Source: an uncultured Bacteroidales bacterium | GTDB lineage: Bacteria > Bacteroidota > Bacteroidia > Bacteroidales > JAUNSR01 | Direction of reading: 5' to 3' | Length of the DNA: 64,000 nt | Assembly: GCA_947074145.1 (NCBI GenBank) | Contig: CAMTOJ010000012.1 | Location: 5,079-69,078, forward strand | In this document: piece by piece, positions 4,840 through 28,283 of the stretch | Layout of the letters: the number at the start of each line of letters is the position of its first letter | Numbering within the stretch: the first letter of the stretch is position 1 | Translations under genes and position numbers: made by a program | The notes under the pieces: model-generated | What the model saw: only the letters and a program-made list of their open reading frames with translations | The model's database searches: none | Told to the model about the DNA's origin: nothing

Positions 4840-4956
4840 TGTATTATTGTTAATTATTATTCATTTTTTCTATAAGGCGTACGAAGATACAAAAATAGAC
4901 AATAAAATCTGTATATAAATATAAAAAAATAGTCCCTGAGGCATGTTCAAAAGCAC

Positions 4957-6216
4957 TTATGCAATTTTCAAACGTACTAGATCAATCCTTGCAGTTGCAA
5001 TTTTCATTATCTTTATTTTAAAATTTCCTATTTCTAGATCGTCATGCAATTTAGGTATTGTTTTGTAGTAATGTAAGATGAAACCGGCAAGTGTTGAATA
5101 CTCATCAGACTCAGGAATTTCGAGATCAAAAAGCTCATTTATCTTCTCTATTTCCAATCGTCCGGAAAGTTCATACTCACCCTCTCCTATCTGTTTTGCT
5201 ACATAAAACTTATTGTCGTGCTCATCTTCAAAATCACCGAATATCTCTTCAAAGAGATCCTCCATCGTTATTACACCGGCAGTTCCTCCAAACTCATCAA
5301 CAACTGCTGCTATACTTTTCTTTTTTTCAAGTAGTTGCTTCATCAGTTTATTTGCCGACATGGTTTCGGGAACAATGGGAATTGTGATTATCTTCTGAGT
5401 CCACTCTTTGGGCCTTTTAAACATCTCAGAAGAGTGGATATAACCTATTATGTTGTCTATATTTCCTTTATATACCGGAATTTTTGAATATCCCGTTTCA
5501 ATAAAAATATTGCTTAAAACCGATAGCGAAGTTTCTATATTTACTGCAGTCAATTCAGTTCTGGGGATCATACAATCACGCACTTTCAAGGACGAAAAAT
5601 CAAGTGCGTTCTGAAACAATTTCACCTCATGATCATTTGGCGCTTCTGTAGTAGAATCATCAATACTTTTTTGTATAAAAAAATCAAGATCAACTCTCGT
5701 TATAAGCCTTGCATCTTTATCTTTCAACATTTTAACCCCAAGCATTTTTAATATACGCTTTGCTAAAAAAGTAGTAAAAATAGCAACGGGCCAAAGAATT
5801 ATATAGATTAGAAATAATGGTAAAGCAAAAATATTTAATGAAAAGTTTGGATTTATCTTAAACAACGTTTTGGGAAGAAATTCCGCAGTAACTAGTATTA
5901 TAAGTGTTGATATAATAGTTTGAATCACAACTATCACCGCATCATTGTTTATGATTTTAGCGATAGAAGGTTCAAGCAATAATGACATTAATATACCATA
6001 AATTACAAGTGCAATATTATTACCTACAAGCATAGTGGAAATAAAAACCTCGCTATTCTTATAAAATATCTCTAAAATAGAAGATGTGAAACCTTTCTTC
6101 TTCTTATCAAGCTCATACCTCACTTTATTCGATGAAACGAATGCTATTTCTATACCCGAAAAAAATCCGGAGAAAATAAGTGCGATTATTATATATATTA
6201 TATATCCCGTATCCAT
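4957..6216 (-). CDS. HlyC/CorC family (CNNM/DUF21-CBS-CorC) hemolysin-like transporter
   Basis: FFSGIEIAF, TMLVGNN, EFLPK, MIPR, VDEFGGTAG, EDLFEEIFG. Confidence 0.9.
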   Translation of the reverse strand: MDTGYIIYIIIALIFSGFFSGIEIAFVSSNKVRYELDKKKKGFTSSILEIFYKNSEVFISTMLVGNNIALVIYGILMSLLLEPSIAKIINNDAVIVVIQTIISTLIILVTAEFLPKTLFKINPNFSLNIFALPLFLIYIILWPVAIFTTFLAKRILKMLGVKMLKDKDARLITRVDLDFFIQKSIDDSTTEAPNDHEVKLFQNALDFSSLKVRDCMIPRTELTAVNIETSLSVLSNIFIETGYSKIPVYKGNIDNIIGYIHSSEMFKRPKEWTQKIITIPIVPETMSANKLMKQLLEKKKSIAAVVDEFGGTAGVITMEDLFEEIFGDFEDEHDNKFYVAKQIGEGEYELSGRLEIEKINELFDLEIPESDEYSTLAGFILHYYKTIPKLHDDLEIGNFKIKIMKIATARIDLVRLKIA

Positions 6217-13065: not shown

Positions 13066-14502
13066 TTAGTATAAATGTTCAACAATTGAATTTAGATAGA
13101 TTTCAATATTTGTATAATGGTTATCAGAATCAATAGTTTTTAGAACAGAATCGTGGGCATCATTTTTATTCAAACCATTACTATCTTCCCAATAATCTGG
13201 AATTCCATCATTATCCGTATCTTGCTTGAGATCATAAGTATTATATTGAGGCCATCCCCCGACATCTTGTTGGGAGTCTATAATTCCGGGTTTACCGGAT
13301 TTGGAACCGGAAAATGTCACTGTTCCTGTTTTAACCTCTTCCACAATCCTTTTATCTACTATATCTCTTTTATTCGAGGTACCAGCATATAATAATACTT
13401 TTTCATATGCACTCAGCGCATCATCGGTAGGAATTGAGCATATTTCAAATTCGGTGTCTGATTTAATCTGTTGCTTTTCTACTCTATTATTATGTGGATG
13501 TATCCCTTTCCAGTTGTCAGAACTAACTTCATCATTTCCAATAACAACATTACCATCTACATAGAATTCTCCATAAATCCCCCCTTTTTCATAAGGTTCG
13601 AATATTCTGTGTCTCACATTATTGTTGGTAGCCGGACCATATTTGTAATAATTATTTATGATGTTATAACTACCTCCTTCGGCTGCATATCCGCTATTAT
13701 ATCCCCAATTGTAAATCACATTATTTCTAAAATCAACTTGTTCAAGATCGGGACGGTCGGTATATCGACTTCCACAAAGACGAGGATTTCGACTATTGTG
13801 ATGAGCTATGAGGTTGTGATGAAATGTAGCTTTCTGGCCTCCCCAAATAGCTCCATAGCCATGATCTCCTTTTATATGTGCAGAACTGTTAAGGCTCTCT
13901 GATAATATACACCACTGCATAGTGAAATTTTTGTTATCATAGAAAGAAGAACATTCATCGGTACTCCAACTCATTGAGCAATGATCTATAATGATATTAG
14001 ATTGGCGTCTACCCCATAAAGCATCATCTTCAACTTGATATAGATCACCCATCCTGAATCTGATAAATCGGATTATCACATTATCCGATTTTACTTGGAC
14101 AGAATTACCGGACAGACAGATACCGTCCCCGGGGGCACTCTGACCGGCTATTGTCAAATCGCCATTGCTAATCTCCAATCGACTTTTTAAATCTATTTTC
14201 CCGGATACAGAAAAAACAATTATTCTCGGATAATCCTGATTAACAGCCCATCTCAAAGACCCCTCCTTTTCATCATCTTCCAAACGAGTAACTTTCAATA
14301 CGATTCCATCTCTTCCCCCTTTAGTAAATTTCCCGGCACCTTGAGCCCCGGGAAAAGCGACAGTCTTATTAGTATGCTCTTTTACCGAAGTTGACTCATA
14401 TTGTTTTTCTTCGGTTTTATGTGTTTTGCATGAATATGAAGCGATACATGAAATGATAGATATAAAAATCAATTTTCTCTTGACTATTTTAGACCTTAAC
14501 AT
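13066..14502 (-). CDS. Pectate lyase (PL1), probable lipoprotein
   Basis: AFPGAQGAG...GGR, GSLRWA, TIAGQSAPG, IIDHCSMSWSTDE, SRNPR, DNDGIPD. Confidence 0.88.
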   Translation of the reverse strand: MLRSKIVKRKLIFISIISCIASYSCKTHKTEEKQYESTSVKEHTNKTVAFPGAQGAGKFTKGGRDGIVLKVTRLEDDEKEGSLRWAVNQDYPRIIVFSVSGKIDLKSRLEISNGDLTIAGQSAPGDGICLSGNSVQVKSDNVIIRFIRFRMGDLYQVEDDALWGRRQSNIIIDHCSMSWSTDECSSFYDNKNFTMQWCILSESLNSSAHIKGDHGYGAIWGGQKATFHHNLIAHHNSRNPRLCGSRYTDRPDLEQVDFRNNVIYNWGYNSGYAAEGGSYNIINNYYKYGPATNNNVRHRIFEPYEKGGIYGEFYVDGNVVIGNDEVSSDNWKGIHPHNNRVEKQQIKSDTEFEICSIPTDDALSAYEKVLLYAGTSNKRDIVDKRIVEEVKTGTVTFSGSKSGKPGIIDSQQDVGGWPQYNTYDLKQDTDNDGIPDYWEDSNGLNKNDAHDSVLKTIDSDNHYTNIEIYLNSIVEHLY

Positions 14503-14649
14503 CTTTGGTTTTGTTTATATTAATAATGTGTTAATCATTGACTGATAATTTTCTAAATATAATTATTAGGATCTGAACTTACACATCATATTCGTTAGAT
14601 TTTGATAAAATTTATTTTCAATATTGATTACTTATTAAACATTATAATT

Positions 14650-14994
14650 ATGGAACTATTCATCTCTTCCATTTTTAAGTATTTCACCCATTTATCTGCA
14701 TCAGATATTATTGGGTATATAGCTTCCATTTGTTTGATATTTGGTTATCTACCTCAAACAATTCATACTATAAAAACACGAAAAACAGATGATATTGCTG
14801 TTGGGACATTTCTTCTAATGGGAATTGGAAGTTTATTTTTTGGAATACAAGGAATAATGCTTTCCAATATACCTCTTATTGTTACCAATTTTATAACATT
14901 TTCCTTAAGCTCAATTATATTCGCTATAAAAATGTATAACGATCATTTCAAAATTACAGACAGTGATGTAGATAGAAAGAAAAAGAAATATTAA
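14650..14994 (+). CDS. SemiSWEET / PQ-loop family transporter
   Basis: IGYIA...GYLPQTIHTIKTRKTDDI, PLIVTN; 3 TM; start placed at the ATG at 14650. Confidence 0.8.
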   Translation: MELFISSIFKYFTHLSASDIIGYIASICLIFGYLPQTIHTIKTRKTDDIAVGTFLLMGIGSLFFGIQGIMLSNIPLIVTNFITFSLSSIIFAIKMYNDHFKITDSDVDRKKKKY

Positions 14995-15009: not shown

Positions 15010-15064
15010 AAAAAAAAAGCAGAATTCCTTTTATTTAGCATTAAAGTAGGAATTCTGCTCTTTT
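15010..15064. terminator. Bidirectional terminator ending the oxalate operon and SemiSWEET
   Basis: GCAGAATTCCT ... AGGAATTCTGC with flanking A-run and T-run. Confidence 0.75.
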
Positions 15065-15068
15065 ATTA

Positions 15069-18000
15069 TTAGCAATTATTTCTGTTTTTCAATATCTCAA
15101 ATAACTTCTCACAAGTATCACTCAAAGCAGACTGAAGTATCTTTGATTCTTTAGGCAAAGTCTCCTCAAGATCTGCATAGCGATCCTCTCCGTCAAGATA
15201 TTGAGACAAAGTACCATCTGGTTTCTGGTAATCGATTGTTAGAGGATCTTTACCTGTTGCGTTATTTTCAGGATTATATCTATACAAAGGCCAATAACCG
15301 GAAGCTACAGCCCTAGATTCCTCAATAATATTCATTCCCATACCTTTTCTCAAACCATGGTTAATACATGGACAATATGCTATTACAATGGAAGGACCAT
15401 TATAATTTTCGGCCTCGGTTAAGGCCTGTATTGTATGTTCTTTGTTTGCTCCTATTGAAACCGAGGCTACATAAACTGAGCCATAAACCATTGCCATACG
15501 ACCAAGATCTTTCTTATTTGTACGTTTACCAACAGATGAAAATTTCGCTATTGCTCCTAATGGTGTGGCTTTAGAAGTTTGACCGCCTGTATTGGAATAA
15601 CATTCTGTATCAAGAACTAGAATATTAACATTTTCTCCCGAAGCCAAAACATGATCAAGACCTCCATATCCAATATCGTAAGCCCAACCGTCACCCCCGA
15701 TTATCCATATGCTCTTTTTTCCTAAAAGATCGGAACTATCCAAAATATCTGCGATTATCTTAATAGATGAATATTTATTCAAGTTCTCTTTTAATTTATT
15801 TCCTATAACAATTGATTTTTCTGGATCTTCCTTATCAACAAGCCATTCATTCAACATTTCACATGTATCCTTATCCAGACCTGCTTGATTTACAGCCTGA
15901 GTGATTAATATTTCAAGTTTATCTCTTCTTTGTTTAATAGCTGTCGCTATACCGTATCCATACTCTGCTGCATCCTCAAATAAAGAATTACCCCATGCCG
16001 GGCCTTGCCCGTTTTTATTGATAGTATAGGGCATACTAGGCATACTTGCACCCCAGATAGAACTACAACCGGTAGCATTTGCCACTATCATCCGTTCTCC
16101 GAAAAGTTGAGTTACAAGTTTCACATAAGGTGTCTCTCCACATCCGGCACAACATCCTGAGAACTCTAACAGAGGTTGTTGAAATTGAGATCCTCTTATA
16201 CTGTTTCGTGGTACAAGATTATCTTTCACAGTTATATTAGCCTTGGCAAAATCGAGATTTATCTTTTGTGTATCAATAAGCTCATCATAAGGTTTCATAC
16301 TTAAAGCCTTTACAGGACAAACATTCACACAAGATTCGCACCCGACACAATCTTCTGGATATATTTGAATTCGATAATTAAGATTTAAGAAAACATCTCC
16401 TCCTTTTGCTTTTTTGACAATGAATGACTGTGGAGCTTTAGCTAATTCTTCTGCAGTGGCAAGATATGGTCTTATTGCGGCATGAGGACAAACGAACGAA
16501 CATTGGGTACATTCAATGCATATCTTATCATCCCATTCTGGTAAAGATACTGCGACACCCCTTTTCTCATAAGCGGTTGTTCCGGGTGGAACTTTTCCGT
16601 CCGCAGCAAAAAGAGATACCGGTAAACTATTACCTTTTAAAGCCAATATTGGTTTTGCTACATTCTTAATGAAATCCGGTATCTTTTCTGTTTCATTATT
16701 TTTTTCTTCAGCTTGTAGCCAGGAAGAAGGATATTTGATTTCCTGAATTGCTGTAATAGTCATATCTACAGCTTTTATGTTTTTTAAAACTATATCATCA
16801 CCCTCTTTTTCATAGATTTTTTTAATATCTGTTTTTAGAAGTGATATTGCTTTATCAAAATCAAGAACATTTGATAATTTAAAAAACACAGTCTGCATTA
16901 TCATATTGATTCTTATTCCTAATCCTACTTCTGAGGCTATTTTTTCTGCATCTATATTATAAAATTTCAAGTTCTTATTTGCAATCTCTCTTCTCATGTT
17001 TGCAGGAAGCTTTTGTTCCATTTCTTGCAATGTCCATGATGAATTAAGAATAAAAACACCATTTTCTTTTATACCCTCAAGAATATCAAACTTGTTTACA
17101 TAACTATCCTTATGACATGCTATATAATCGGCATCAGTGATTAGATATGCAGATTTTATAGGTGTGTTTCCAAACCTCAAATGAGAAACAGTATATCCTT
17201 CAGACTTCTTTGAGTCATATGAGAAATATGCCTGTACATATAGATCTGTGTTATCTCCAATGATATTTGAGGCTTGTTTATTTGCCCCGACTGTACCATC
17301 AGATCCGATACCAAAAAATTTACATTGAATAGTTCCTTCTGGCGTGGTTTCTATTTTTTCTGTAATTTCCAATGATAATTTGGAGACGTCATCATTTATT
17401 CCTACTGTAAATCGCAATTTTGGAGTTTCACTCTTCATATTTTCATACACAGCCTTCACCATTGAAGGTGTCAAGTCCTTAGAGCTTAACCCATAGCGAC
17501 CACCTATTACTTTGATAAATTTTTCTTTTGTTAATAAAGCTGTACATATATCCTGAAATAGAGGTTCTCCTTGCGATCCTGGTTCCTTTGTTCTGTCAAG
17601 TACTGTAATCAATTTTACAGAATCAGAAATAACAGATATAAAGGAATCAACAGAAAAGGGACGATATAATCTTACCTTTATCAGACCTATCTTTTCACCT
17701 TTTTTAAGAAGATAATCAATCGTCTCTTCAATTACATCACAGCTTGAACCCATTGAGACGATTAAAAACTCTGCCTCTTTATCTCCTACGTAGTCAAATA
17801 AACCATATTTTCTTCCTGTTATCCGGTATACATCATTCATCTTATTCTCAACTATTTCCGGAAATGTATCATATATGAGATTAGCTGCTTCTCTATTTTG
17901 AAAATACACATCAGGGTCTTGAGCGGTTCCTCTTATTTCCGGATGTTCCGGATTCATTGCTCTTTTTCTAAAATCTTTTATTTTATCATAATTAATCAAT

Positions 18001-18593
18001 GGAGCTATATCATCATACTCTATTGTTTCAATAGTTTCCATTTCACTTGATGTTCTCATTCCATCAAAAAAATGGCAGACCGGTATTGACCCTTCAATTG
18101 CCGCGAGATGAGCAACAAGAGCAAGATCCATACATTCCTGAACAGATGAAGAAGCAAGAAATGCAAAACCGGTTTGACGACAAGCCATCACATCCTGATG
18201 ATCCCCAAAAATCGATAAAGCATGCGTTGATAAAGAACGAGTTGTTACATGAAAAACTGCCGGAAGTAACTCTCCGGCAATTTTATACATATTAGGTATC
18301 ATTAACATTAATCCTTGTGAGGCTGTATAAGTAGTAGCAAGCGCTCCTCCACATAAACTGCCATGAACTGCACCTGCTGCACCCAGTTCAGATTCCATCT
18401 CTCTTACAACCATAGGTTGTCCGTATAGATTTTTAATCCCATTGTTTGCCCACATATCAGCAAGTTCTCCCATATCCGAAGCTGGAGATATGGGATAGAT
18501 GGTCGCTACATCTGACAACGCATATGATATATATGTAGTTGCAGTACAACCATCCATCACACTCTTTTTAGATTTCATAAATATCAGATTCAA
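15069..18593 (-). CDS. nifJ: Pyruvate:ferredoxin (flavodoxin) oxidoreductase family enzyme, divergent, in the oxalate operon
   Basis: Single-chain PFOR architecture: YPISP, SELGAAGAVHG, GSDGTVGANK, two CxxCxxCxxxCP motifs, CAGCGE, GDGWAYDIG, YSNTGGQ; start may be the ATG at 18578. Confidence 0.85.
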   Translation of the reverse strand: MNLIFMKSKKSVMDGCTATTYISYALSDVATIYPISPASDMGELADMWANNGIKNLYGQPMVVREMESELGAAGAVHGSLCGGALATTYTASQGLMLMIPNMYKIAGELLPAVFHVTTRSLSTHALSIFGDHQDVMACRQTGFAFLASSSVQECMDLALVAHLAAIEGSIPVCHFFDGMRTSSEMETIETIEYDDIAPLINYDKIKDFRKRAMNPEHPEIRGTAQDPDVYFQNREAANLIYDTFPEIVENKMNDVYRITGRKYGLFDYVGDKEAEFLIVSMGSSCDVIEETIDYLLKKGEKIGLIKVRLYRPFSVDSFISVISDSVKLITVLDRTKEPGSQGEPLFQDICTALLTKEKFIKVIGGRYGLSSKDLTPSMVKAVYENMKSETPKLRFTVGINDDVSKLSLEITEKIETTPEGTIQCKFFGIGSDGTVGANKQASNIIGDNTDLYVQAYFSYDSKKSEGYTVSHLRFGNTPIKSAYLITDADYIACHKDSYVNKFDILEGIKENGVFILNSSWTLQEMEQKLPANMRREIANKNLKFYNIDAEKIASEVGLGIRINMIMQTVFFKLSNVLDFDKAISLLKTDIKKIYEKEGDDIVLKNIKAVDMTITAIQEIKYPSSWLQAEEKNNETEKIPDFIKNVAKPILALKGNSLPVSLFAADGKVPPGTTAYEKRGVAVSLPEWDDKICIECTQCSFVCPHAAIRPYLATAEELAKAPQSFIVKKAKGGDVFLNLNYRIQIYPEDCVGCESCVNVCPVKALSMKPYDELIDTQKINLDFAKANITVKDNLVPRNSIRGSQFQQPLLEFSGCCAGCGETPYVKLVTQLFGERMIVANATGCSSIWGASMPSMPYTINKNGQGPAWGNSLFEDAAEYGYGIATAIKQRRDKLEILITQAVNQAGLDKDTCEMLNEWLVDKEDPEKSIVIGNKLKENLNKYSSIKIIADILDSSDLLGKKSIWIIGGDGWAYDIGYGGLDHVLASGENVNILVLDTECYSNTGGQTSKATPLGAIAKFSSVGKRTNKKDLGRMAMVYGSVYVASVSIGANKEHTIQALTEAENYNGPSIVIAYCPCINHGLRKGMGMNIIEESRAVASGYWPLYRYNPENNATGKDPLTIDYQKPDGTLSQYLDGEDRYADLEETLPKESKILQSALSDTCEKLFEILKNRNNC

Positions 18594-18605
18594 TTTTATT
18601 TATTT

Positions 18606-19628
18606 CTATCCCGCGACGAGCCGCGCTAACCATATCCAAAGTGGAGCAGTACCCATAAAAAGCAATGTACTAAATGCTAAAGAGGATGTGCCCGTTCTGA
18701 CATAAGTTTGAAAACGACTTCCTATGATAATTCCTGAAAAAACAGGAGGTAATGCACCCGCCAAAACTACCATTTGAAGTTTTTCTGCATCAAGACCTAT
18801 TAGTTTGCCCAACAATAAGAAAAGAGCAGGCATAATAAAAAGTTTCACAATAGAATTATAAATCACTTCCTTATCAAACTCAATGCTTGTTGCCGATAAA
18901 GTCAAACCGGCCGCAAACACTGCCACTCCGGCATTTGCTTTACCAATGAGAACAAATGAAGGCTCTGCAATTGGAGGAAATTTTATCCCGCACAAAACAA
19001 TTATCACGGCTATAATTGGCGACCAAACTACAGGTTCTTTCATTGCGTTTAGAAATGCACTACCATGATGAACTTTTTGTGGTGCTGTTGCTGTAGCAGT
19101 GCCGGCTGAAGTCGCTGTTGCAGTTCCAGAAGAAGTAGCTTCTTTTGCATGCAGCTCAGCTAATGCTTTTTGAGGATTAAGAATCACCAATGCTATAGGT
19201 ATTGCTATGGCATTTACTACAATCGCAACAATTGCAACAACAAGACCGGTTGATGCACTTGCTCCGTAAATAGGCTCAAGTATAGCATAACCAAGGAAAC
19301 CTATTGTAGGTGCCCCTCCTATTAATCCGCATATTGCTGATTCGCCGGTGGTATGCTTAAAAAACTTTTTACAGGAAAAATATGACCAGAAATAACATCC
19401 TATAATTACAACAAGACTGACAAGTGATAATCTTGCATCTTGAAATAACATCTCTCTATCAGCTTTAACGATTGAAACAAATAAAGCCGCAGGAAGACAG
19501 TAATTTAGAACAAGTTTATTAAAACTTCGTGATGTACCTGGCTGGAATACTTTTCTTTTTCCGGCTATATAACCTAAAATCATGATTATATATATCGGTA
19601 ATAAGTCAGTTAATATAATTTTTAGCAT
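18606..19628 (-). CDS. AEC-family transporter, YfdV-like putative oxalate/formate transporter
   Basis: [52 protein letters not shown] match YfdV-type proteins; lies directly after oxc. Confidence 0.85.
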
Positions 19629-19647
19629 AAACTTTTCATTTGATTAT

Positions 19648-21369
19648 TTAATCCTTAAGTATGGTTTTAGGATTTAAACTACTTATATGACCACTCTCTG
19701 TTCCATCTTTGGGATCAATAACGCAGTTTATTAATGTTGGTTTTCCTGAACTTATACCATCAGAAAGTGCTTTCGTTAATTCTTCAGGTGTAGTCGCATT
19801 ATAAGGAGTACCACCGAAAGCTTCAATTAATTTATCATATCTTGCATCTGCCATCAGTGTAGTTGGTGAAGGATCAGGACCTCCTCCAAGATTAGTATGC
19901 CAGCCATTGTAAATACCACCATTGTTAAAAACAACAACTGTTATAGGTAGCTTGAATCGACAGATTGTTTCTATCTCCATTCCACTAAAACCGAAAGCAC
20001 TATCTCCCTCTATAGCAACTACAGGTTTTCCTGTTGTGATAGCTGCACCTATTGCAAATCCCATTCCTATACCCATGACTCCCCAAGTTCCACAATCCAA
20101 ACGATGACGTGGATAATATATGTTTACAACATTTCTTGTATCATCAAGAGTATTTGCTCCTCCATTAACAAGATAAATATCCTTATTCTGTTCAAGAACA
20201 GATTTAACTGCTTTAAGAGCATTAAAGAAATTCATCGGCGATGTATTATTATTTAGTTTTATCGCCATTTTTGCATCATTCTTTTGTTTATCTTGATTGA
20301 TACCTTCCATCCATGATGGTTGAGGTTTTATATTATATTTTGACAATCCTTTAACCATCAAATCCATACTTGAAACAATATCTCCCACTACAGGAGCTTC
20401 AATTGGCCTATTGCTGTCAATCTCTTGAGGATCAATGTCAAGTTGAATAAAACGCACGTTAGGATTCCAATGTTTTCCTTTTCCATGAGCCAACAGCCAG
20501 TTGAGTCGGGCACCTAATAATACAACAACATCTGCATTTTCCAAAACATAGGAACGAGCAGCTGCTGCACTCTGAGGATGATCATCAGGTAATAATCCTT
20601 TAGCCATAGACATTGGAAGGAAAGGTATTCCGGTTTTTTCTATAAACTCTTTTATATCATCATCTGCTTGAGCATAAGCAGCTCCTTTACCCAATATTAT
20701 TAATGGATTTTTTGCCGTAGACAAAAGGTGTAATGCCTTATCCACAGATTCACAAGATGGTATTACTTTAGGTGATGGATCTTCAACTTTAAACAGTGTT
20801 TTTGCTGCTTCATCCTTATCCATAATACTACTTAATAAAGCAGTCGTAAGATCAAGATAAACACCACCCGGGCGACCTGAAACCGCAGCTCGAATAGCCC
20901 TGGCTAATCCTATTGCGATATCTTCTGGTTTGTTAATTCTATAAGATGCTTTAACAAAAGGTTTGGCAATATTCATTTGATCTAACTCTTCATAATCACC
21001 CTGTTGTAAGTCGATTATAGATCTTGTACTTGATCCGCTTATTTGAATCATTGGGAAACCATTTGTTGTTGCATTAGCAAGAGCTGTTAATCCGTTTAGA
21101 AAACCGGGAGCTGAAACTGTTAGGCATATTCCTGGTTTTTTTGTTAGAAAGCCTGTTATTGCAGCTGCATTTCCGGCAGATTGTTCATGACGAAAAGCAA
21201 TATAACGAATTCCTTCTTCTTGTAAATGACGAGCAAGATCAGTTACAGGGATTCCGCATACTCCATATACTACTTCAATATCATTTTTCTTAAGTGCGTC
21301 CACAACAATGTGCATACCGTCAGTAAGGTTTTGAGCTTGTGGTTGTGTCTGAGGTTTTATATTATCCAT
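19648..21369 (-). CDS. oxc: Oxalyl-CoA decarboxylase
   Basis: LTDGMH, GIPVTDLAR, FRHEQSAG, DLQQGDYEELDQ, RLDCGTWGVMGIGMG, EGDSAFGFSGME, GTESGHI. Confidence 0.95.
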   Translation of the reverse strand: MDNIKPQTQPQAQNLTDGMHIVVDALKKNDIEVVYGVCGIPVTDLARHLQEEGIRYIAFRHEQSAGNAAAITGFLTKKPGICLTVSAPGFLNGLTALANATTNGFPMIQISGSSTRSIIDLQQGDYEELDQMNIAKPFVKASYRINKPEDIAIGLARAIRAAVSGRPGGVYLDLTTALLSSIMDKDEAAKTLFKVEDPSPKVIPSCESVDKALHLLSTAKNPLIILGKGAAYAQADDDIKEFIEKTGIPFLPMSMAKGLLPDDHPQSAAAARSYVLENADVVVLLGARLNWLLAHGKGKHWNPNVRFIQLDIDPQEIDSNRPIEAPVVGDIVSSMDLMVKGLSKYNIKPQPSWMEGINQDKQKNDAKMAIKLNNNTSPMNFFNALKAVKSVLEQNKDIYLVNGGANTLDDTRNVVNIYYPRHRLDCGTWGVMGIGMGFAIGAAITTGKPVVAIEGDSAFGFSGMEIETICRFKLPITVVVFNNGGIYNGWHTNLGGGPDPSPTTLMADARYDKLIEAFGGTPYNATTPEELTKALSDGISSGKPTLINCVIDPKDGTESGHISSLNPKTILKD

Positions 21370-21404
21370 AATAATTTTAATATGATTATCACAAAATATT
21401 GAAT

Positions 21405-21444
21405 AACGGTCTTATGATAATAAAATTATTATCATAAGACCGTT
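21405..21444 (-). promoter_or_regulatory. Intercistronic perfect stem-loop between frc and oxc
   Basis: 19-bp perfect arms AACGGTCTTATGATAATAA / TTATTATCATAAGACCGTT; only a weak U-tract in the sense (-) direction. Confidence 0.6.
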
Positions 21445-21448
21445 TTTT

Positions 21449-22720
21449 TTATTTGCAAACAATATGTCCTGTTCTGAATTTATCGATATCTGCATCGGTA
21501 TATCCTATTTCTTTTAAGATCTCATTTGTATGCTCACCTAACAAAGGTGCTGACTTCACCTCAGGTGTAAAGTCTGAGAATTTAGGAGGACATCCTATGG
21601 TTACATATTTACCTCGAATCGGTTGATCAACTTCAACAAGGGTACCGCATTTATATAAAGATTCATCTTTTTCAATCTCTAACATACTTAAAACAGGACC
21701 ACAAGGAACACCTTTCTTTCCTAGTTCATCAACTATTTCGTGTTTATCTTTATTTATAGTATACTCTTCAACACCTTTATAAATTTCCTGTTTTACAAGA
21801 TTGCGAGCTTCAGGTGTATTAAATTTAGGATCAGTTATCCATTCAGGTTTTCCTAATGCCTGACAAGCTTCATCAAATGCTTTGGCTTCATTTTGAAGAA
21901 CGATATATACATATGCATTTGGATCTGTTTCCCAACCTTTACATTTATAACACCATCCAAGTACCTGTCCACCTTCAACATTACCGGCACGTGGCACAGT
22001 ATCTCCAAATTTTTCAGAAGGATATTCAGGAAGATGTTTAAGGACACCTATATTCTGAAGCATTAACTGGTCACGTAGTTTTATTCGACAAAGATTCAAT
22101 ACAGCATCCTGCATTGATTGTTGTACAAAACATCCCTCTCCTGTCTTTTCTCTTTTGAGCAAAGCTGCAAGTAATCCGATAGCAAGATGCATACCAGTGT
22201 TACTATCTCCAAGTGCAGCTCCTGATTGAGTAGGAATATTATATTCACCATCCCACCATCCTGTTGTTGCAGCAGCGCCTCCGGCACATTGAGCAACTGG
22301 TTCAAAAGCCTTTACGCTTGCATAAGGAGAGTCGTCGTTAAATCCCTTAATTGTCCCATAAATAACACGAGGATTCATTTTATGAACCTCTTCCCAAGAA
22401 AAGCCTAAACTATCCGCTGCACCTGGGTGAAGATTTTCCACAAATATATCTGCACCCTTTATAAGTTTGGTAAGAATCTCTTTTCCTTCAGGTGTCTTGA
22501 CATTCAATTCTATTGAGCGTTTATTACTATTTAATTGAAGAAAATACAAACTGTCCATTCCTTCAAAATCAAGTAATTCGTTTCTTGTTGGATCTCCACT
22601 TCCAACTCTCTCGATTTTAATGACATCTGCTCCTAACCATGCTAAAAGTTGAGTACATGACGGACCTGACTGCACTTGTGTCCAGTCTATAATTTTAATT
22701 CCTTGCAATGGTGAAACCAT
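21449..22720 (-). CDS. frc: Formyl-CoA:oxalate CoA-transferase (class III)
   Basis: [29 protein letters not shown] (catalytic Asp), [31 protein letters not shown]. Confidence 0.93.
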
Positions 22721-23280: not shown

Positions 23281-24573
23281 TTATTTTACGATGTTAACTG
23301 ATTTCAAAAGTTCATTCTTTTCAAACGTCATTAAAGACGTAGCAACTCCTGTAGCTGCATCAATAGCATATATAGTTGGATGATCCAAGGCTGTTGTACC
23401 AGAAGAACTTGACATTGATGTTGCAGCAGCCAATGGTAGATAGAATACACCATCATATCCGTCACCCCATCCTATAGAAAATGAATAAACAGAAGGATTG
23501 GGTAATCCACTTACCCATTTAAATGATTTGTCACTCATCTTAACAACAGCCATTAATCCTGACTCAGCCATGTTACCATAAGCACCTTTATTTGTAAAGA
23601 ATTCCAATAAAAAATAATCGTCACTTATATAGAAAGCCTTACGAAAACGATAACCATCAGATTGTGCTAGAATATCGAAATGATAATCAGTATCAAATGA
23701 TTTTGTTCCTGATTTTATTCTTATGGCTCCAACTTTGGAATCATCACTACTAGAACCTGAAAATATATAAACATTTCCATTCTCATCTGCTGCACTTTGT
23801 GTATAACGTACGCTTCTCATAGCTCCCACAGAACTGCCGATACGCTCATCTGTTATAAACTTTTGTGAATCTATATTCAGGCTATAATCGGTAAATGCTA
23901 CGGCTGCCAAATCCTGATCTGAATAATTCACAACGACAGCTACCTGATTATTTCCCATATCTACGATATTAGAAAAAGTCGGAGTTGTTTCATTGATTGC
24001 TATAGAAGGAAGATTAACTGCTATATTATTACTTGAAATAATATCATTATTATTTCCAACGACCATAGCAAAAGGATTTGAGATTTGTGCAGCATAAGAA
24101 TAATTTCCGAATATCCCCGTATTTCCAAAAGAAGCAACAACAACCGGTTCACCTATTTCTGAAAGCTCTTGATTAGTTAATTTATATGATCTCAGACCTG
24201 CTGTAGAAGAACCTATGCCTCCGTTTTCTACAGAAGCTGCGCCTCTTGCATAAATATATCCGGTAAGAGTTGATGTATTTTCATTATAGGTCAACTGGGT
24301 AAAAGTATCCGGTACTTTTAATGCCGATTCATCATTATATACAGTTTCGTTATATCGAGGTAATAAGATATCTGAATATACTTTCATTCCGACACCTGCA
24401 ACAAGATCATTTTCTGGATCTCCGGATGTCACTATCATAAAAACATCTTTTGCCTGTTCATCAGGTTGCTGTGATTGTAATACATCTGAATCATTGTCAT
24501 CACTACATGAAACTGTTATAAAACCGACACAACATACTATTATTGAGCGCTTTACCAAAGTAAGTTTTTTCAT
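23281..24573 (-). CDS. Surface lipoprotein, DUF4374-like (XusB-like) paralog
   Basis: Lipobox TVS|C followed by acidic export signal SDDNDSD; DENGNVYIFS, GAIRIKSG...FDTDYHFDI, KWVSGLP, IYAIDAATG. Confidence 0.7.
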   Translation of the reverse strand: MKKLTLVKRSIIVCCVGFITVSCSDDNDSDVLQSQQPDEQAKDVFMIVTSGDPENDLVAGVGMKVYSDILLPRYNETVYNDESALKVPDTFTQLTYNENTSTLTGYIYARGAASVENGGIGSSTAGLRSYKLTNQELSEIGEPVVVASFGNTGIFGNYSYAAQISNPFAMVVGNNNDIISSNNIAVNLPSIAINETTPTFSNIVDMGNNQVAVVVNYSDQDLAAVAFTDYSLNIDSQKFITDERIGSSVGAMRSVRYTQSAADENGNVYIFSGSSSDDSKVGAIRIKSGTKSFDTDYHFDILAQSDGYRFRKAFYISDDYFLLEFFTNKGAYGNMAESGLMAVVKMSDKSFKWVSGLPNPSVYSFSIGWGDGYDGVFYLPLAAATSMSSSSGTTALDHPTIYAIDAATGVATSLMTFEKNELLKSVNIVK

Positions 24574-24604
24574 TCTACGTTTTTTAATAATTAATAATTG
24601 ATTG

Positions 24605-25900
24605 TTATTTATAGTTCAAATATCCTATTGTTCTTATTTCATAAACACCTTTCAATGTGATCCCTTTTGTAGCCTGAGCTGATTCTGGATCAACAATATA
24701 AATAGAAGCATCTTCACCGAAACTAGTAATCGGCATATATAATTTCCCGTCATTAAACATCGGTACCCCTCCTGTTTCTGCGCCCGAAAGGATAAGACTC
24801 TTATTTGGAAGGCCGGAAATCCATTTAAATGATTTCTCCTCCATATCGACGATTGCGAACTGATGCCCGGGAGTTATTGTTGAGATATTGATATCATTAT
24901 ATATTTCAAGACAAAACTTGTTGTCGGTCATATGCCATAAACGTCTGATAGTATATCCTCCTGTCTGTTCTTCAATATTGAAATAATAATCCTTGTCAAA
25001 TTCAGATGATCCGGTAGTTATTCGAAGAGCACCACAGGCTTTTGTCGTATTTTTGTCAAATGAACCGGAAAAAACATATACAGTTCCATTATCTGTTTTT
25101 CCTAACTGAGAGAAAACTTGTGATCTGTATTGACCTGCACTATAGCTAATTCTGTCATCTCTATATATGTTTTTTATTTTCAAATCCTTATCCATATGAG
25201 CAACCCAAACACTATCAGGAAAAGCAACATCTCCTATACTCGAACCATTACCTGTTCCTGTCTGATTGAATGAAGATTGAACCATACTTGAAAGAAATTC
25301 ACCGTTACCAAGATCAACAACACCGGCAAAGGTTATCTGCTCATCATTTGATGTTATATCTTCTGTCCAGATTGTTGTGGTTCGCTCTAATGAAACAGAA
25401 TTATCATTTATATCCCAAAAAGAGAAAGTGGCGCCGTCGTTTCTTGTTCCGTCAGCCGAAACCTGACCGGCAACACTTGTCATAAGTTGGCTACCAAAGA
25501 ATCCGTAATTTGAAAAACGGCTCGATATCTTGAATTCCCCCAATTTTTCAAGAGAAGAATCCTTTTTATATCGAAAACCATATCCTATACCGGCAAATTG
25601 TTGTTGGTAGACCATTCCTATTGCTACATCTTCTTTGAATATCCAAGTATATTCGGTTTGTGGGAGTTCCATTATATTGGAACTTATATTAAGATCACCT
25701 TCCTCCAGGGATTCTGCCTGCATTATATATTCGGTTCCACTACTTGCTTTTACTGCAATAAAATATGGACCGGTTCCACTTTGAAGAACATCTCCATTCG
25801 ATATATTCTCATCTTTTTCACACGAAGAAAATAATGAGACAGAGCCTATCAGAAAACTGAATCTGAATAATCTCTTAAATAATAAACTCTTTTGATTCAT
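24605..25900 (-). CDS. Surface lipoprotein, DUF4374 (XusB-like)
   Basis: Lipobox FSS|C-EKDE; PDSVWVA, DDRISYSAGQYRSQ, VYVFS, GALRI...FDKDYYFNIE, KWISGLP. Confidence 0.78.
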   Translation of the reverse strand: MNQKSLLFKRLFRFSFLIGSVSLFSSCEKDENISNGDVLQSGTGPYFIAVKASSGTEYIMQAESLEEGDLNISSNIMELPQTEYTWIFKEDVAIGMVYQQQFAGIGYGFRYKKDSSLEKLGEFKISSRFSNYGFFGSQLMTSVAGQVSADGTRNDGATFSFWDINDNSVSLERTTTIWTEDITSNDEQITFAGVVDLGNGEFLSSMVQSSFNQTGTGNGSSIGDVAFPDSVWVAHMDKDLKIKNIYRDDRISYSAGQYRSQVFSQLGKTDNGTVYVFSGSFDKNTTKACGALRITTGSSEFDKDYYFNIEEQTGGYTIRRLWHMTDNKFCLEIYNDINISTITPGHQFAIVDMEEKSFKWISGLPNKSLILSGAETGGVPMFNDGKLYMPITSFGEDASIYIVDPESAQATKGITLKGVYEIRTIGYLNYK

Positions 25901-25910
25901 TTTTTTATAA

Positions 25911-28283
25911 TTAGTTGTTAAGTTGTTTATGAAAGAAATAGCGAAATTTTAGAGAGAAATTCCGCCCCGGTTTCTGTAAACTATAATTATCATATAAAAG
26001 AGCATCTGTTATATTACCTGCTTGCACAGCAATGTTAAACCTCCCATTATTTATCGAATAAGTCATATTTATATCATGTGACATCTGTCTTGGAATATAA
26101 AGTTTAGCTCCTTCGCCTGCCCATGAACGAAAAAATTTCTCTGTAAAAAGTAAATTATATCCCAATGTCAGGTTATTTTTCTTGCCGAATAATCTATAGA
26201 AAGTATAAGAGGCATCTGCATTTCCAAACAAGTAGGGAAGATTTGGAACACGATTATTATAAGTTACGGATTCAGAACCAATAGCAGTATATAATTCTTT
26301 ATCCCTCATATCATGATAAGAAAAATTGGATCCGACCACTAAAATATTTTTATAGTAATATCTCAATGTTATATCCGTACCTAATCCTAAAACTTTTCCG
26401 TGATTCGCGCTTGTAGCTATACCTTTTGACCCAATAGTTCTGATTATATAATCAGTAACATATCTGGAAAATGCTCCAAAATCGATAGTAAAAGAATGTT
26501 TCTTATCAAAATAATGAGAGTAAGAAAGATTCATATTAAAATTGTTGCTGTTTTCAGGTCTTATATTTGCTGCGCCGTTTTCATAATCACCGTCACCGAA
26601 AAGTTCTGTATCTGTCGGTAATCTATATGTCTTTTCATAAGAAATCTTATATTGAAGGTCTGAAGTGAAGAAATATGTTCCGGCCACTCCATAACCGAAA
26701 ACATCACTATTTCGGGTTTGTTCTTCATACTGATCTCTTCCGGTTATTGCAACGTTAACAGGACCACAAACATTAGTGTAATAATATTTACCGAATAATG
26801 ATGCATTCCATTTATCACTGTGTACATATTTATATGATAAACCAAGTATATTCTTTTCATTCTTTCTTCTCATAAAGGTTGCAGCACTACTCTGCATTGA
26901 ATTAGCAGCTGAATTCGTGGTCTTACGCACATAATGGCTATACATATTATTCAACGAGAAAAAATGATTCTCTCCTATTCGATATTTTAGATTAGCAACA
27001 CTATAACCGGTTTTCCCATGAAATTCGGCAAGAGTAGCAACCCCTTCTCCTTGAGTATCCTTGTCTATATATTCACCACTCCAGTTATATTCACGCGCTA
27101 CTGTATCAACGTTATTTGTAGAGACATCGGAATATCTCACACTCAGATCCACATCCAGATTTTTTATAATGAAATTTTTCTTTTCGTAATTCAAAGAGGG
27201 TGTTATTGCATTTGAAGTACGATATTTACCACCGAAAACGATAGTCATCAGATTTGCATTCTGTATTTGTGCATATTCGCGACTATAATTTAAGCCTACG
27301 ATAAAACGGTTAGCCCACCTCTTATTTTCTACTCCTGTCTGAAATATCACAGCCTCATTATGATATTTATCATGAAAGCGGCGAAACCAATCCTCTTGTT
27401 GTGACACACTGCTGGTCATAAGATCGGTATATTTGGTTTTTATCTTATAATCATTATCTGAATAGTTTTGATATGCATTAAGCTGGAGAATAAAACCTTT
27501 TTTTGATGTATATCCGAAGTTCAAATTTGATTTATGTGTATTAAATGAACCATAAGAATATGAAGCATCAAGATATGTATTGGATGTTTTAGATGTCACT
27601 ATATTTATAGCTCCACCTAATGCATCACCACCAAACTCGACCGGAACTACTCCTTTATAGATTTCGATCCTTTCCGCTATATTGACAGGAATATTATTTA
27701 ATTTAAAAGATGAACCCGACCCTTCCATCGGTACTCCATCTATAAAGATTTTAATATGTCTTCCTGTAAAACCATTAAGATTTATCTGAGTACCAGAACC
27801 AAGTCCCCCTTCTTCTCTTAATCTTACTCCTGATACTGTATTAAGGATATGAGCAAGATCAAGAGATGTATTACTTAATTTTTTTGTATCAATTGCGACG
27901 GCATTATAAGCTGAGTTGTTAATAACATCAACAGCCTTTCCCAATATCTCGACTTCTTCTATCTCCTCAATTTTTGGGATTAATGTTAAATTCATTTTTA
28001 TGCGTTCACCGTCTAATAATGTCAAATCTTTTTCGACCGTTTCATACCCCAACGCAGAAACAACAAGAGTATAATGTCCCTGTTTAGCTACTATGTGATA
28101 AAGCCCTTCTGAATTGCTGGCACTCCCGAATCCTGTATTTTTAAGATATACGGTAGCGAACTCGACAATTCCATTTTCTATTGAAAATATCCTACCTGAA
28201 ATGACAGCTTCTTTTTTATGGGCAAAAGCAGATAATGAATTCACCAAAACAACCAAAACCAACACTAAACTCCTAAATTTCAT
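25911..28283 (-). CDS. TonB-dependent receptor, probably iron/xenosiderophore uptake (XusA-like)
   Basis: N-terminal carboxypeptidase-regulatory-like domain, GVRLREEGGLGS plug, IEIYKGVVP...DALGGAINIVT, RFHDKY, LYDNYSLQKPGR. Confidence 0.88.
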   Translation of the reverse strand: MKFRSLVLVLVVLVNSLSAFAHKKEAVISGRIFSIENGIVEFATVYLKNTGFGSASNSEGLYHIVAKQGHYTLVVSALGYETVEKDLTLLDGERIKMNLTLIPKIEEIEEVEILGKAVDVINNSAYNAVAIDTKKLSNTSLDLAHILNTVSGVRLREEGGLGSGTQINLNGFTGRHIKIFIDGVPMEGSGSSFKLNNIPVNIAERIEIYKGVVPVEFGGDALGGAINIVTSKTSNTYLDASYSYGSFNTHKSNLNFGYTSKKGFILQLNAYQNYSDNDYKIKTKYTDLMTSSVSQQEDWFRRFHDKYHNEAVIFQTGVENKRWANRFIVGLNYSREYAQIQNANLMTIVFGGKYRTSNAITPSLNYEKKNFIIKNLDVDLSVRYSDVSTNNVDTVAREYNWSGEYIDKDTQGEGVATLAEFHGKTGYSVANLKYRIGENHFFSLNNMYSHYVRKTTNSAANSMQSSAATFMRRKNEKNILGLSYKYVHSDKWNASLFGKYYYTNVCGPVNVAITGRDQYEEQTRNSDVFGYGVAGTYFFTSDLQYKISYEKTYRLPTDTELFGDGDYENGAANIRPENSNNFNMNLSYSHYFDKKHSFTIDFGAFSRYVTDYIIRTIGSKGIATSANHGKVLGLGTDITLRYYYKNILVVGSNFSYHDMRDKELYTAIGSESVTYNNRVPNLPYLFGNADASYTFYRLFGKKNNLTLGYNLLFTEKFFRSWAGEGAKLYIPRQMSHDINMTYSINNGRFNIAVQAGNITDALLYDNYSLQKPGRNFSLKFRYFFHKQLNN

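Follow-up and report, generated by a model that had tools for sequence, protein, structure and literature searches.

Microbial oxalate degradation matters for kidney-stone disease, and it is currently attributed to frc and oxc, to which a transporter and yfdE may be added. In Escherichia coli K-12 these genes lie on one strand in the order frc-oxc-yfdV-yfdE, as had been stated in an earlier reading of the locus studied here (the sequence-only reading), made from its letters alone. YfdE is described in the available part of PMC3720670 as the primer of the pathway, using acetyl-coenzyme A (acetyl-CoA); according to the same source, the half-life of formyl-CoA is 1.9 h once the reaction mixtures are quenched. 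For the Muribaculaceae (S24-7), oxc, frc and K07088, the last listed as an uncharacterized protein, have been reported as family-specific (PMC6381624, available part). We analysed a 64,000-nucleotide stretch of the genome of an uncultured gut Bacteroidales bacterium (contig CAMTOJ010000012.1; the whole stretch is called the window) in which frc, oxc and a YfdV-like transporter gene of the AEC family are followed by the gene of a single-chain pyruvate:ferredoxin oxidoreductase (PFOR). This PFOR belongs to a lineage of its own that accompanies oxc in three phyla, and it seems to be a fourth enzyme of oxalate breakdown that has so far escaped notice.

The four genes follow one another in the same direction on the minus strand. 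The first, frc (positions 21449-22720), encodes a formyl-CoA:oxalate CoA-transferase of 423 amino acids that scores 664.8 bits with TIGR03253 (cut-off 504.2) and also matches PF02515, and the second, oxc (19648-21369), encodes an oxalyl-CoA decarboxylase of 573 amino acids that scores 953.1 bits with TIGR03254 (cut-off 739.4) and 992.6 bits, over cut-off, with NF006721. As adjacent equivalogs, 79 bp apart, they agree with a type II oxalate degradation cluster (E. coli yfdWUVE-like). Next comes the 340-residue YfdV-like transporter (AEC; 18606-19628), which is borderline for NF007384 (404.9 bits, cut-off 404) and scores 207.1 bits with PF03547 (Mem_trans), and then the nifJ-type PFOR paralog, an open reading frame (ORF) of 1174 codons (15069-18593) with a TIGR02176 score of 1779.5 bits (cut-off 911.35). 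Both the ORFs and the family models bear out the gene identities, the shared strand and the gaps of 79, 19 and 12 bp given in the sequence-only reading. Going by its relatives, the ATG at 18578 (MKSKK...) is the more probable start of the PFOR, which would widen the gap behind the transporter gene to 27 bp. The PFOR gene is probably co-transcribed with frc-oxc-AEC.

The window PFOR is a paralog of the housekeeping enzyme. The assembly to which the window belongs (3.7 Mb in 106 contigs, 95% complete) holds two single-chain PFORs over the family cut-off, of which the second, on another contig (C6; 1986.3 bits), is a canonical nifJ with DGNQAAAH...YPITPSS. The two proteins are 51% identical (594 of 1170 residues), and the suspicion in the sequence-only reading that the operon does not encode the housekeeping PFOR was well founded. 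Its description of the PFOR as divergent is a relative one; the protein lies far above the PFOR cut-off and matches the Moorella thermoacetica PFOR structure (6cin) with 1543.5 bits and that of Desulfovibrio africanus (1b0p) with 1529.7 bits.

A scan of one genome per species gave 417 relatives, and the best 80 of these 417 loci were kept. Trees were built with FastTree from 76 full-length proteins, with FastTree from 117 rows that included 36 of 151 library representatives (1130-1260 amino acids), and with IQ-TREE from 42 rows. The library consists of 50%-identity representatives whose best full-length matches are at most 53% identical, and it served as outgroup diversity only; seven representatives in the size range were omitted, six as truncated or odd and one (P0018) because it was placed separately. 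The window PFOR falls inside a clade of 70 with a support of 100 in both FastTree analyses and an SH-aLRT of 100 with IQ-TREE. Outside this clade, in the 76-row tree, stand the genome's own housekeeping PFOR and PFORs from Desulfobacterota, Myxococcota and Christensenellaceae records, and the Bacteroidales housekeeping PFORs form a group apart. By these comparisons the lineage is nearer to PFORs of the Desulfobacterota/Moorella type than to the Bacteroidales housekeeping enzyme. The clade comprises a Turicimonas and Coriobacteriia part (4 rows), the window's subclade (11) and a mostly Muribaculaceae-labelled group (55). Five records labelled Clostridium sp. or Staphylococcus sp. (L039, L046, L052, L066 and L071) have PFORs nested in the Muribaculaceae part of the tree, and the organism labels of these metagenome-assembled genomes (MAGs) are probably wrong. 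P0018, of 1233 residues, has an N-terminal extension of about 40 residues, a DGC motif and Val at the position of C998 (numbering of the window protein), and sits on a long branch outside the clade; DGC alone is thus not clade-defining.

Members of this clade are recurrently found beside oxalate genes. When the Frc, Oxc and AEC proteins of the window were compared by tblastn with all 80 loci, at least one of the three genes was found beside the PFOR gene in 42. None of the three was found in a further 22 clade loci, all of which extend 2.5 kb or more upstream, and 10 loci are too short to judge; the 6 loci outside the clade are all without these genes next to the PFOR gene. All 4 members of the Turicimonas/Coriobacteriia part are linked, as are 10 of the 11 members of the window's subclade; the Muribaculaceae-labelled part divides into 28 linked, 19 unlinked and 8 undecided loci. 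The linkage is thus conserved across three phyla (Bacteroidota, Actinomycetota and Pseudomonadota), and one linked cluster is carried by a record (L067) labelled Adlercreutzia agrestimuris DSM 109821. The unlinked clade copies revealed no other common neighbourhood.

At least six gene arrangements occur around the clade PFOR. Most loci show frc-oxc-AEC-PFOR, one is frc-oxc-PFOR (L015), and two are frc-oxc-AEC-yfdE-PFOR (L012 and L014). In others AEC-oxc-frc is divergent from the PFOR gene (L020, L051 and L058), frc lies on the other strand from oxc-AEC-PFOR (L084, L067 and L068), or frc-PFOR is accompanied by a divergent oxc-AEC pair (L063). The yfdE gene of L012, immediately before the PFOR gene, is an equivalog (584.7 bits, cut-off 522), and the L014 copy, in the same place, is 75% identical to it. 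The sequence-only reading had placed the PFOR 'in place of yfdE', which is apt for its position in the window; in the sister loci L012 and L014, however, yfdE sits between the transporter and the PFOR gene, and the PFOR is therefore no mere stand-in for YfdE. Oxygen-defence genes lie in or near the cluster in some Muribaculaceae loci: a flavodiiron-like gene is inserted between AEC and the PFOR gene in L032 (5494-6681) and probably also in L037, where the spacing is the same and the PFOR nearly identical, and in L026 a rubrerythrin gene is found just downstream (13737-14318). In the Turicimonas record L084 a formate-tetrahydrofolate ligase gene (4470-6113) precedes oxc at a distance of about 1 kb; it is on the opposite strand, and a 172-codon ORF separates the two. 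As no second single-chain PFOR of the corresponding Turicimonas genome (G004) passes the family cut-off, the linked enzyme is its only candidate of that type for pyruvate work.

The association extends from neighbouring genes to whole genomes. Samples were drawn from the window's order (401 genomes), from a Muribaculaceae-like family (f21; 101), from the family of G005, the genome that contains L067, a record labelled Eggerthellaceae (81), and from the family of G004 (81). As related genomes are not independent, the counts are given without P values. In the order, oxc was found in 6 of the 401 genomes, one of them the window's own; in each of the 6 the paralog shares the contig and strand of oxc and is no more than about 3 kb away. 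The block also varies within the window's genus: G000, the window's own genome, and G221 have both oxc and the paralog, and G091 (99% complete) and G328 (90% complete) have neither, with a 52%-identical housekeeping PFOR only. As regards a single insertion or deletion of the block within the genus, the operon flanks gave no usable match in these two oxc-negative congeners, and in G221 only the downstream flank is syntenic.

In f21 the paralog was called at 58% or more identity to the enzyme of L026, against 44-48% over the full length for housekeeping types. By this measure 28 of the 101 genomes carry it and 52 are oxc-positive; 27 of the 28 have oxc as well, adjacent and on the same strand in 19, the exception being G473 (82% complete). 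In the family of G005, 8 of 81 genomes are oxc-positive and 8 have a clade-type PFOR (61-100% identity); 7 have both, in every case adjacent, and the exceptions are G539 (1.5 Mb), which has the PFOR and in which oxc was not found, and G558, which has oxc and no PFOR match. In the family of G004, 7 of 81 genomes have oxc and 2 of these have the clade PFOR next to it, whereas none of the 74 oxc-negative genomes has one. Pooled over the three family samples, the paralog occurs without oxc in 2 of 38 paralog-positive genomes (G473 and G539). Even genomes in which the two are unlinked contain an Oxc homolog elsewhere in 5 of 5 cases examined (700-926 bits), in 4 of the 5 just below the equivalog cut-off, as in other f21 genomes. 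The pattern in all three phyla is one-way: the paralog implies oxc, and oxc does not imply the paralog.

Three further observations concern these genomes. Apart from G458, which has a second, unclassified family III CoA-transferase gene (an ORF of 395 codons), every oxc-positive f21 genome has a frc-type gene as its only family III CoA-transferase; the idea that yfdE and the PFOR gene are alternatives was rejected, since in f21 yfdE does not take the place of the paralog where oxc occurs without it. In G166 (f21, 100% complete) the oxalate-linked PFOR was the only one to appear, and nothing of the housekeeping type matched at E <= 1e-100; either the paralog has replaced it there, or another PFOR gene was missed. 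The clade matches of G491 and G539 contain in-frame stops that probably lie at a match end, the open frames being longer than the matches, and neither gene is called a pseudogene.

The protein itself has the complete architecture of its family. The TIGR02176 match is near full length (residues 12-1166 against model positions 3-1160 of 1167), and the full set of PFOR domains is present (POR_N, PFOR_II, POR (domain III), EKR, two Fer4 and TPP_enzyme_C). Two CxxCxxCxxxCP motifs are found, corresponding to the two 4Fe-4S motifs CIECTQCSFVCP and CVGCESCVNVCP, together with the thiamine pyrophosphate (TPP) motif GDGW...DTECYSN and the proximal-cluster cysteines (equivalents of C812, C815 and C840). 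All motifs named in the sequence-only reading (MDGCTA, YPISP, MESELG, KKSEG and DTECYSN) are indeed there, with the Fe-S and TPP motifs intact as it had said.

The residues that contact pyruvate are conserved as well. In the PFOR of D. africanus (DaPFOR), Thr31 and Arg114 hold the pyruvate carboxylate, and Leu121, Ala219, Ile843, Asn996 and Met1202 form a narrow methyl pocket (PMC5020499, available part). Alignment to 1b0p and 7plm pairs Thr31 with S36, Arg114 with R119, Leu121 with L126, Ala219 with A224, Ile843 with I846 and Asn996 with N1001 of the window PFOR, and Met1202 falls in a C-terminal extension that the window PFOR is without. Every DaPFOR-listed residue of the pyruvate site that has a counterpart is thus retained apart from a conservative Thr-to-Ser exchange that keeps the hydroxyl. 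R119, L126 and N1001 are the same throughout the clade (70/70), and A224 and I846 rarely vary. YPISP marks all 11 members of the window's subclade and not the group, the other 59 clade members having YPITP and 2 of 46 other PFORs having Ser, and E465, which gives KKSEG, is found in only 3 of the 11.

Other positions do distinguish the clade. With the requirement that one residue be present in at least 85% of the clade and in at most 12% of 46 other PFORs, 19 positions separate the two. N16C lies in the DGN motif, Q67E and A70L bracket the Glu aligned with DaPFOR Glu64, which we take to be the TPP-activating Glu, and V998C aligns with DaPFOR Val993, three residues ahead of Asn996; L96M is likewise among the clade-specific substitutions near catalytic motifs. 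Q67E, A70L and L96M are present in at least 87% of the clade, N16C and V998C in its 66 Bacteroidota members, and the window PFOR has all five residues (C16, E67, L70, M96 and C998), with the codons of C16 and C998 near 18546 and 15600. Positions 16 and 998 co-vary: C16 is combined with C998 in 66 of 66 Bacteroidota members and M16 with G998 in the 4 members from Coriobacteriia and Turicimonas, and other PFORs mostly have N at position 16 and V, G or I at 998. This co-variation may reflect a single event, and the two cysteines may form a pair near the TPP site.

From these observations we infer the substrate, the direction and the physiological purpose of the window PFOR. The retained first-shell residues indicate a substrate of the pyruvate type, and the enzyme most likely still interconverts pyruvate plus CoA plus oxidised ferredoxin and acetyl-CoA plus CO2 plus reduced ferredoxin. 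The near-exclusive tie to oxc, in turn, suggests a benefit only while the Frc/Oxc cycle runs, and the two features together favour a specialised isoenzyme. Our preferred reading, which we hold tentatively and would stop just short of calling probable, is that the paralog is a PFOR isoenzyme of the pyruvate type, specialised to serve cells in which the formyl-CoA/oxalyl-CoA cycle operates. The lineage has spread jointly with frc-oxc-AEC and is retained almost only where oxc is present. As an accessory enzyme of the cycle, it might sustain acetyl-CoA formation in a cell that is full of oxalate, oxalyl-CoA and formyl-CoA and whose CoA they sequester, and the CoA-thioester cycle would be recharged through YfdE where present and otherwise through a promiscuous Frc. 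The substitutions N16C, Q67E, A70L, L96M and V998C would then tune kinetics or inhibitor tolerance, not substrate choice. The role of YfdE as a primer, the half-life of formyl-CoA and the presence of yfdE beside the PFOR gene in L012 and L014 support a cycle-recharging job of this kind.

Several points weigh against a specialised pyruvate isoenzyme. A paralog that is almost never kept without oxc fits a pathway-specific substrate at least as well, since a generic pyruvate enzyme would be useful without oxc, and 25 of the 52 oxc-positive f21 genomes do without this accessory gene. The housekeeping PFOR already supplies acetyl-CoA, so that priming does not obviously call for a second enzyme. Moreover, yfdE was not found anywhere in the window's genome (95% complete), in which frc is the sole family III CoA-transferase gene (CoA_transf_3) detected, and a second gene of that family exists in just one f21 genome (G458). 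Finally, a pyruvate-sized pocket would also accept the smaller glyoxylate.

The last point leads to an unlikely competitor, already put forward in the sequence-only reading, in which the clade enzyme would be a glyoxylate:ferredoxin oxidoreductase with formyl-CoA and CO2 as products, or in reverse a formyl-CoA-carboxylating 'glyoxylate synthase', and in either case feeds or drains the formyl-CoA pool of Frc and Oxc and couples it to ferredoxin. That the presence of the gene hinges almost wholly on oxc in three phyla is what one would see if its substrate or product belonged to the pathway. The clade substitutions next to the presumed TPP-activating Glu, together with the one in the Mg/TPP loop at a distance of three residues ahead of the Asn that contacts the substrate, are consistent with this proposal, as is the fact that most members are without yfdE, for which an alternative source of formyl- or oxalyl-CoA would be useful. 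Some 2-oxoacid:ferredoxin oxidoreductases, furthermore, accept glyoxylate besides pyruvate (Table 1 of PMC13768988, available part). However, no pocket residue listed for DaPFOR is altered so as to fill the methyl pocket, the Thr-to-Ser exchange is limited to one subclade, yfdE and the PFOR gene stand together in L012 and L014, the Turicimonas enzyme is the only single-chain PFOR over cut-off in its genome, and neither a source of glyoxylate nor a sink for extra formyl-CoA was identified. Similarly unlikely is the more specific proposal that the clade is not a pyruvate enzyme in vivo and catalyses the ferredoxin-dependent conversion of glyoxylate plus CoA to formyl-CoA plus CO2, or the reverse, with the C16/C998 pair as part of the adaptation. 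If true, this would add a previously unrecognised redox branch to the Frc/Oxc cycle of anaerobic gut bacteria, serving priming, glyoxylate use or the assimilation of oxalate carbon.

An anabolic purpose is quite unlikely. In this proposal oxalate is too oxidised for building biomass, and cells growing on it would run the PFOR in reverse as a pyruvate synthase, from Oxc-released CO2 and acetyl-CoA. Eggerthellaceae and Turicimonas (Sutterellaceae) are not known to ferment sugars, and such a role is possible for their clade members; the formate-tetrahydrofolate ligase gene just upstream of the cluster in L084, on the opposite strand, would agree with it. Most clade members, however, are in Bacteroidales; they already have a housekeeping PFOR, and as fermenters of sugars they would have ample pyruvate. 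Relationship gives the idea some support: the nearest outside relatives are PFORs of Desulfobacterota, Myxococcota and Christensenellaceae MAGs, the closest solved structure is the Moorella PFOR, and PFORs of the Moorella/Desulfobacterota type are proposed to run in both directions (sections 6.3-6.4 of PMC13768988, available part). A search of the window's genome (95% complete) did not find an alpha subunit of formate dehydrogenase, which leaves no evident source of low-potential electrons.

We regard it as improbable that the gene is an ordinary PFOR without any oxalate-specific property, carried as a passenger of a mobile frc-oxc-AEC block or co-induced under acid stress. A passenger would explain the very high PFOR family score and the conserved active site, the variable presence of the block within one genus and the absence of the paralog from about half of the oxc-positive f21 genomes. 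It would not explain why linkage persists through at least six arrangements, including divergent transcription and inserted genes, why unlinked copies remain in oxc-positive genomes (5 of 5) with no other shared neighbourhood, why the clade retains its own conserved substitutions or why merely 2 of 38 paralog-positive genomes are without oxc.

A cycle for formate disposal, in which reversed pyruvate formate-lyase (PFL) and the PFOR would oxidise oxalate-derived formate to CO2 and reduce ferredoxin, is very improbable. The window's genome does have a PFL (1076.9 bits, over cut-off) and an FNT formate channel (FocA), and the alpha subunit of formate dehydrogenase was not found there, but PFL is present in just 5 of the 101 f21 genomes and in 1 (G426) of the 28 paralog carriers, too rarely for its reversal to be the general cause of the linkage, a role that we largely reject. 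Least credible of all is a CoA-free conversion of oxalate to two CO2 by an enzyme like the oxalate oxidoreductase (OOR) of M. thermoacetica, with which the window PFOR shares a superfamily and an oxalate setting and from which it departs in every membership feature tested, namely the OOR models (NF045791, 76 bits, cut-off 500; NF045792, 65.7 bits, cut-off 590), the structure matches (67.4 and 55.7 bits with OOR subunits against 1543.5 bits with PFOR), the single chain in place of three subunits, and Ser or Thr where OOR has Arg at the substrate position (YPIRP; PMC5020499, available part).

The operon also carries candidate regulatory structures. A terminator-like hairpin read from the sequence (15010-15058, minus strand) follows the PFOR stop codon, with 10-bp arms (15058-15049 and 15028-15019), a 20-nucleotide loop and then nine T; an automatic scan limited to loops of 3-8 nucleotides did not report it. 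A perfect 18-bp inverted repeat with a 4-nucleotide loop (21405-21444) occupies most of the 79-bp frc-oxc spacer. It is followed by a T run on the plus strand and on the operon strand by a weak T-rich stretch only, and it is a candidate attenuator or mRNA stabiliser that could set the ratio of frc to oxc expression. The single terminator claimed in the sequence-only reading is thus too simple a picture. A promoter scan gave no signal, with 45 promoter-like sites against 40.2 +/- 6.2 expected from shuffled sequence. Among public sequencing runs, 4 DNA runs from a single study came up as possible sources of this DNA, and no RNA run was found to contain the locus.

The genes on either side of the operon are unrelated to it. 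Downstream (13066-14994) lie a gene for a 478-residue protein, of which the N-terminal half resembles the pectate lyase PelZ (121 bits, far below cut-off), and, adjoining it on the opposite strand, one for a 130-residue SemiSWEET/PQ-loop protein. Upstream on the minus strand (23281-28283) are a TonB-dependent receptor gene with a CarboxypepD_reg domain and then tandem genes for DUF4374 proteins (430 and 431 residues). The best named match of the receptor is a myxochelin receptor model (396 bits, cut-off 925), and this DUF4374/TonB region, the immediate upstream neighbour of the oxalate operon, has the appearance of a locus for uptake of an unassigned substrate.

A dedicated PFOR lineage emerges as a fourth, recurrent component of oxalate degradation. 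If the clade PFOR and the housekeeping enzyme share one orthology label, functional profiling would not tell them apart. Should the enzyme merely tune pyruvate metabolism to oxalate stress, it would explain why some oxalate degraders may outperform others; should it act on glyoxylate or formyl-CoA, it would represent a new reaction in anaerobic C2 metabolism and link oxalate to ferredoxin. Because a linked cluster is present in a record labelled as a named strain (A. agrestimuris DSM 109821), the question may be directly testable.

Within the literature covered, from which supplements and subscription journals were left out, we found no description of a link between PFOR and an oxalate operon. 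The available text of a 2026 PFOR review (PMC13768988) is without the terms oxalyl, formyl-CoA, neighborhood and Bacteroid, and its section on multiple PFOR genes is without oxalate; ferredoxin is not mentioned in the available parts of two eLife papers on oxalate degraders. The oxalate genes reported for the Muribaculaceae are the same cluster as that seen here in f21 genomes, and the available part of that report (PMC6381624) does not mention ferredoxin or describe a second PFOR beside the cluster. Within these limits the association is undescribed, and it places a known enzyme family in a new conserved pathway context.

Compared with known systems, the operon shares the order frc, oxc, AEC on one strand with the E. 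coli K-12 genes frc-oxc-yfdV-yfdE (yfdXWUVE, of oxalate-induced acid tolerance); it differs in its fourth gene, which is a PFOR gene here and encodes the acetyl-CoA:oxalate CoA-transferase YfdE there, and neither yfdX nor evgAS was seen adjoining the window operon. The window PFOR resembles the OOR of M. thermoacetica (5c4i) in being a 2-oxoacid:ferredoxin oxidoreductase with TPP and Fe-S clusters that is tied to oxalate use. OOR, however, has three subunits, is independent of CoA and carries YPIRP (PMC5020499, available part), whereas the window protein is a single chain with Ser at that position and scores far below the OOR models. The closest likeness is to single-chain PFORs (NifJ/YdbK; 6cin from M. 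thermoacetica and 1b0p from D. africanus), with which it shares full-length alignment, domains, the motifs of three Fe-S clusters, the TPP motif, the carboxylate-binding Arg and identical methyl-pocket residues. It lacks the C-terminal extension of the D. africanus enzyme, the alignment stopping at chain residue 1161 of 1231, and it is set apart from the known single-chain PFORs by its own clade, the five substitutions, the change of Thr31 to Ser in the window's subclade and its context of oxalate catabolism.

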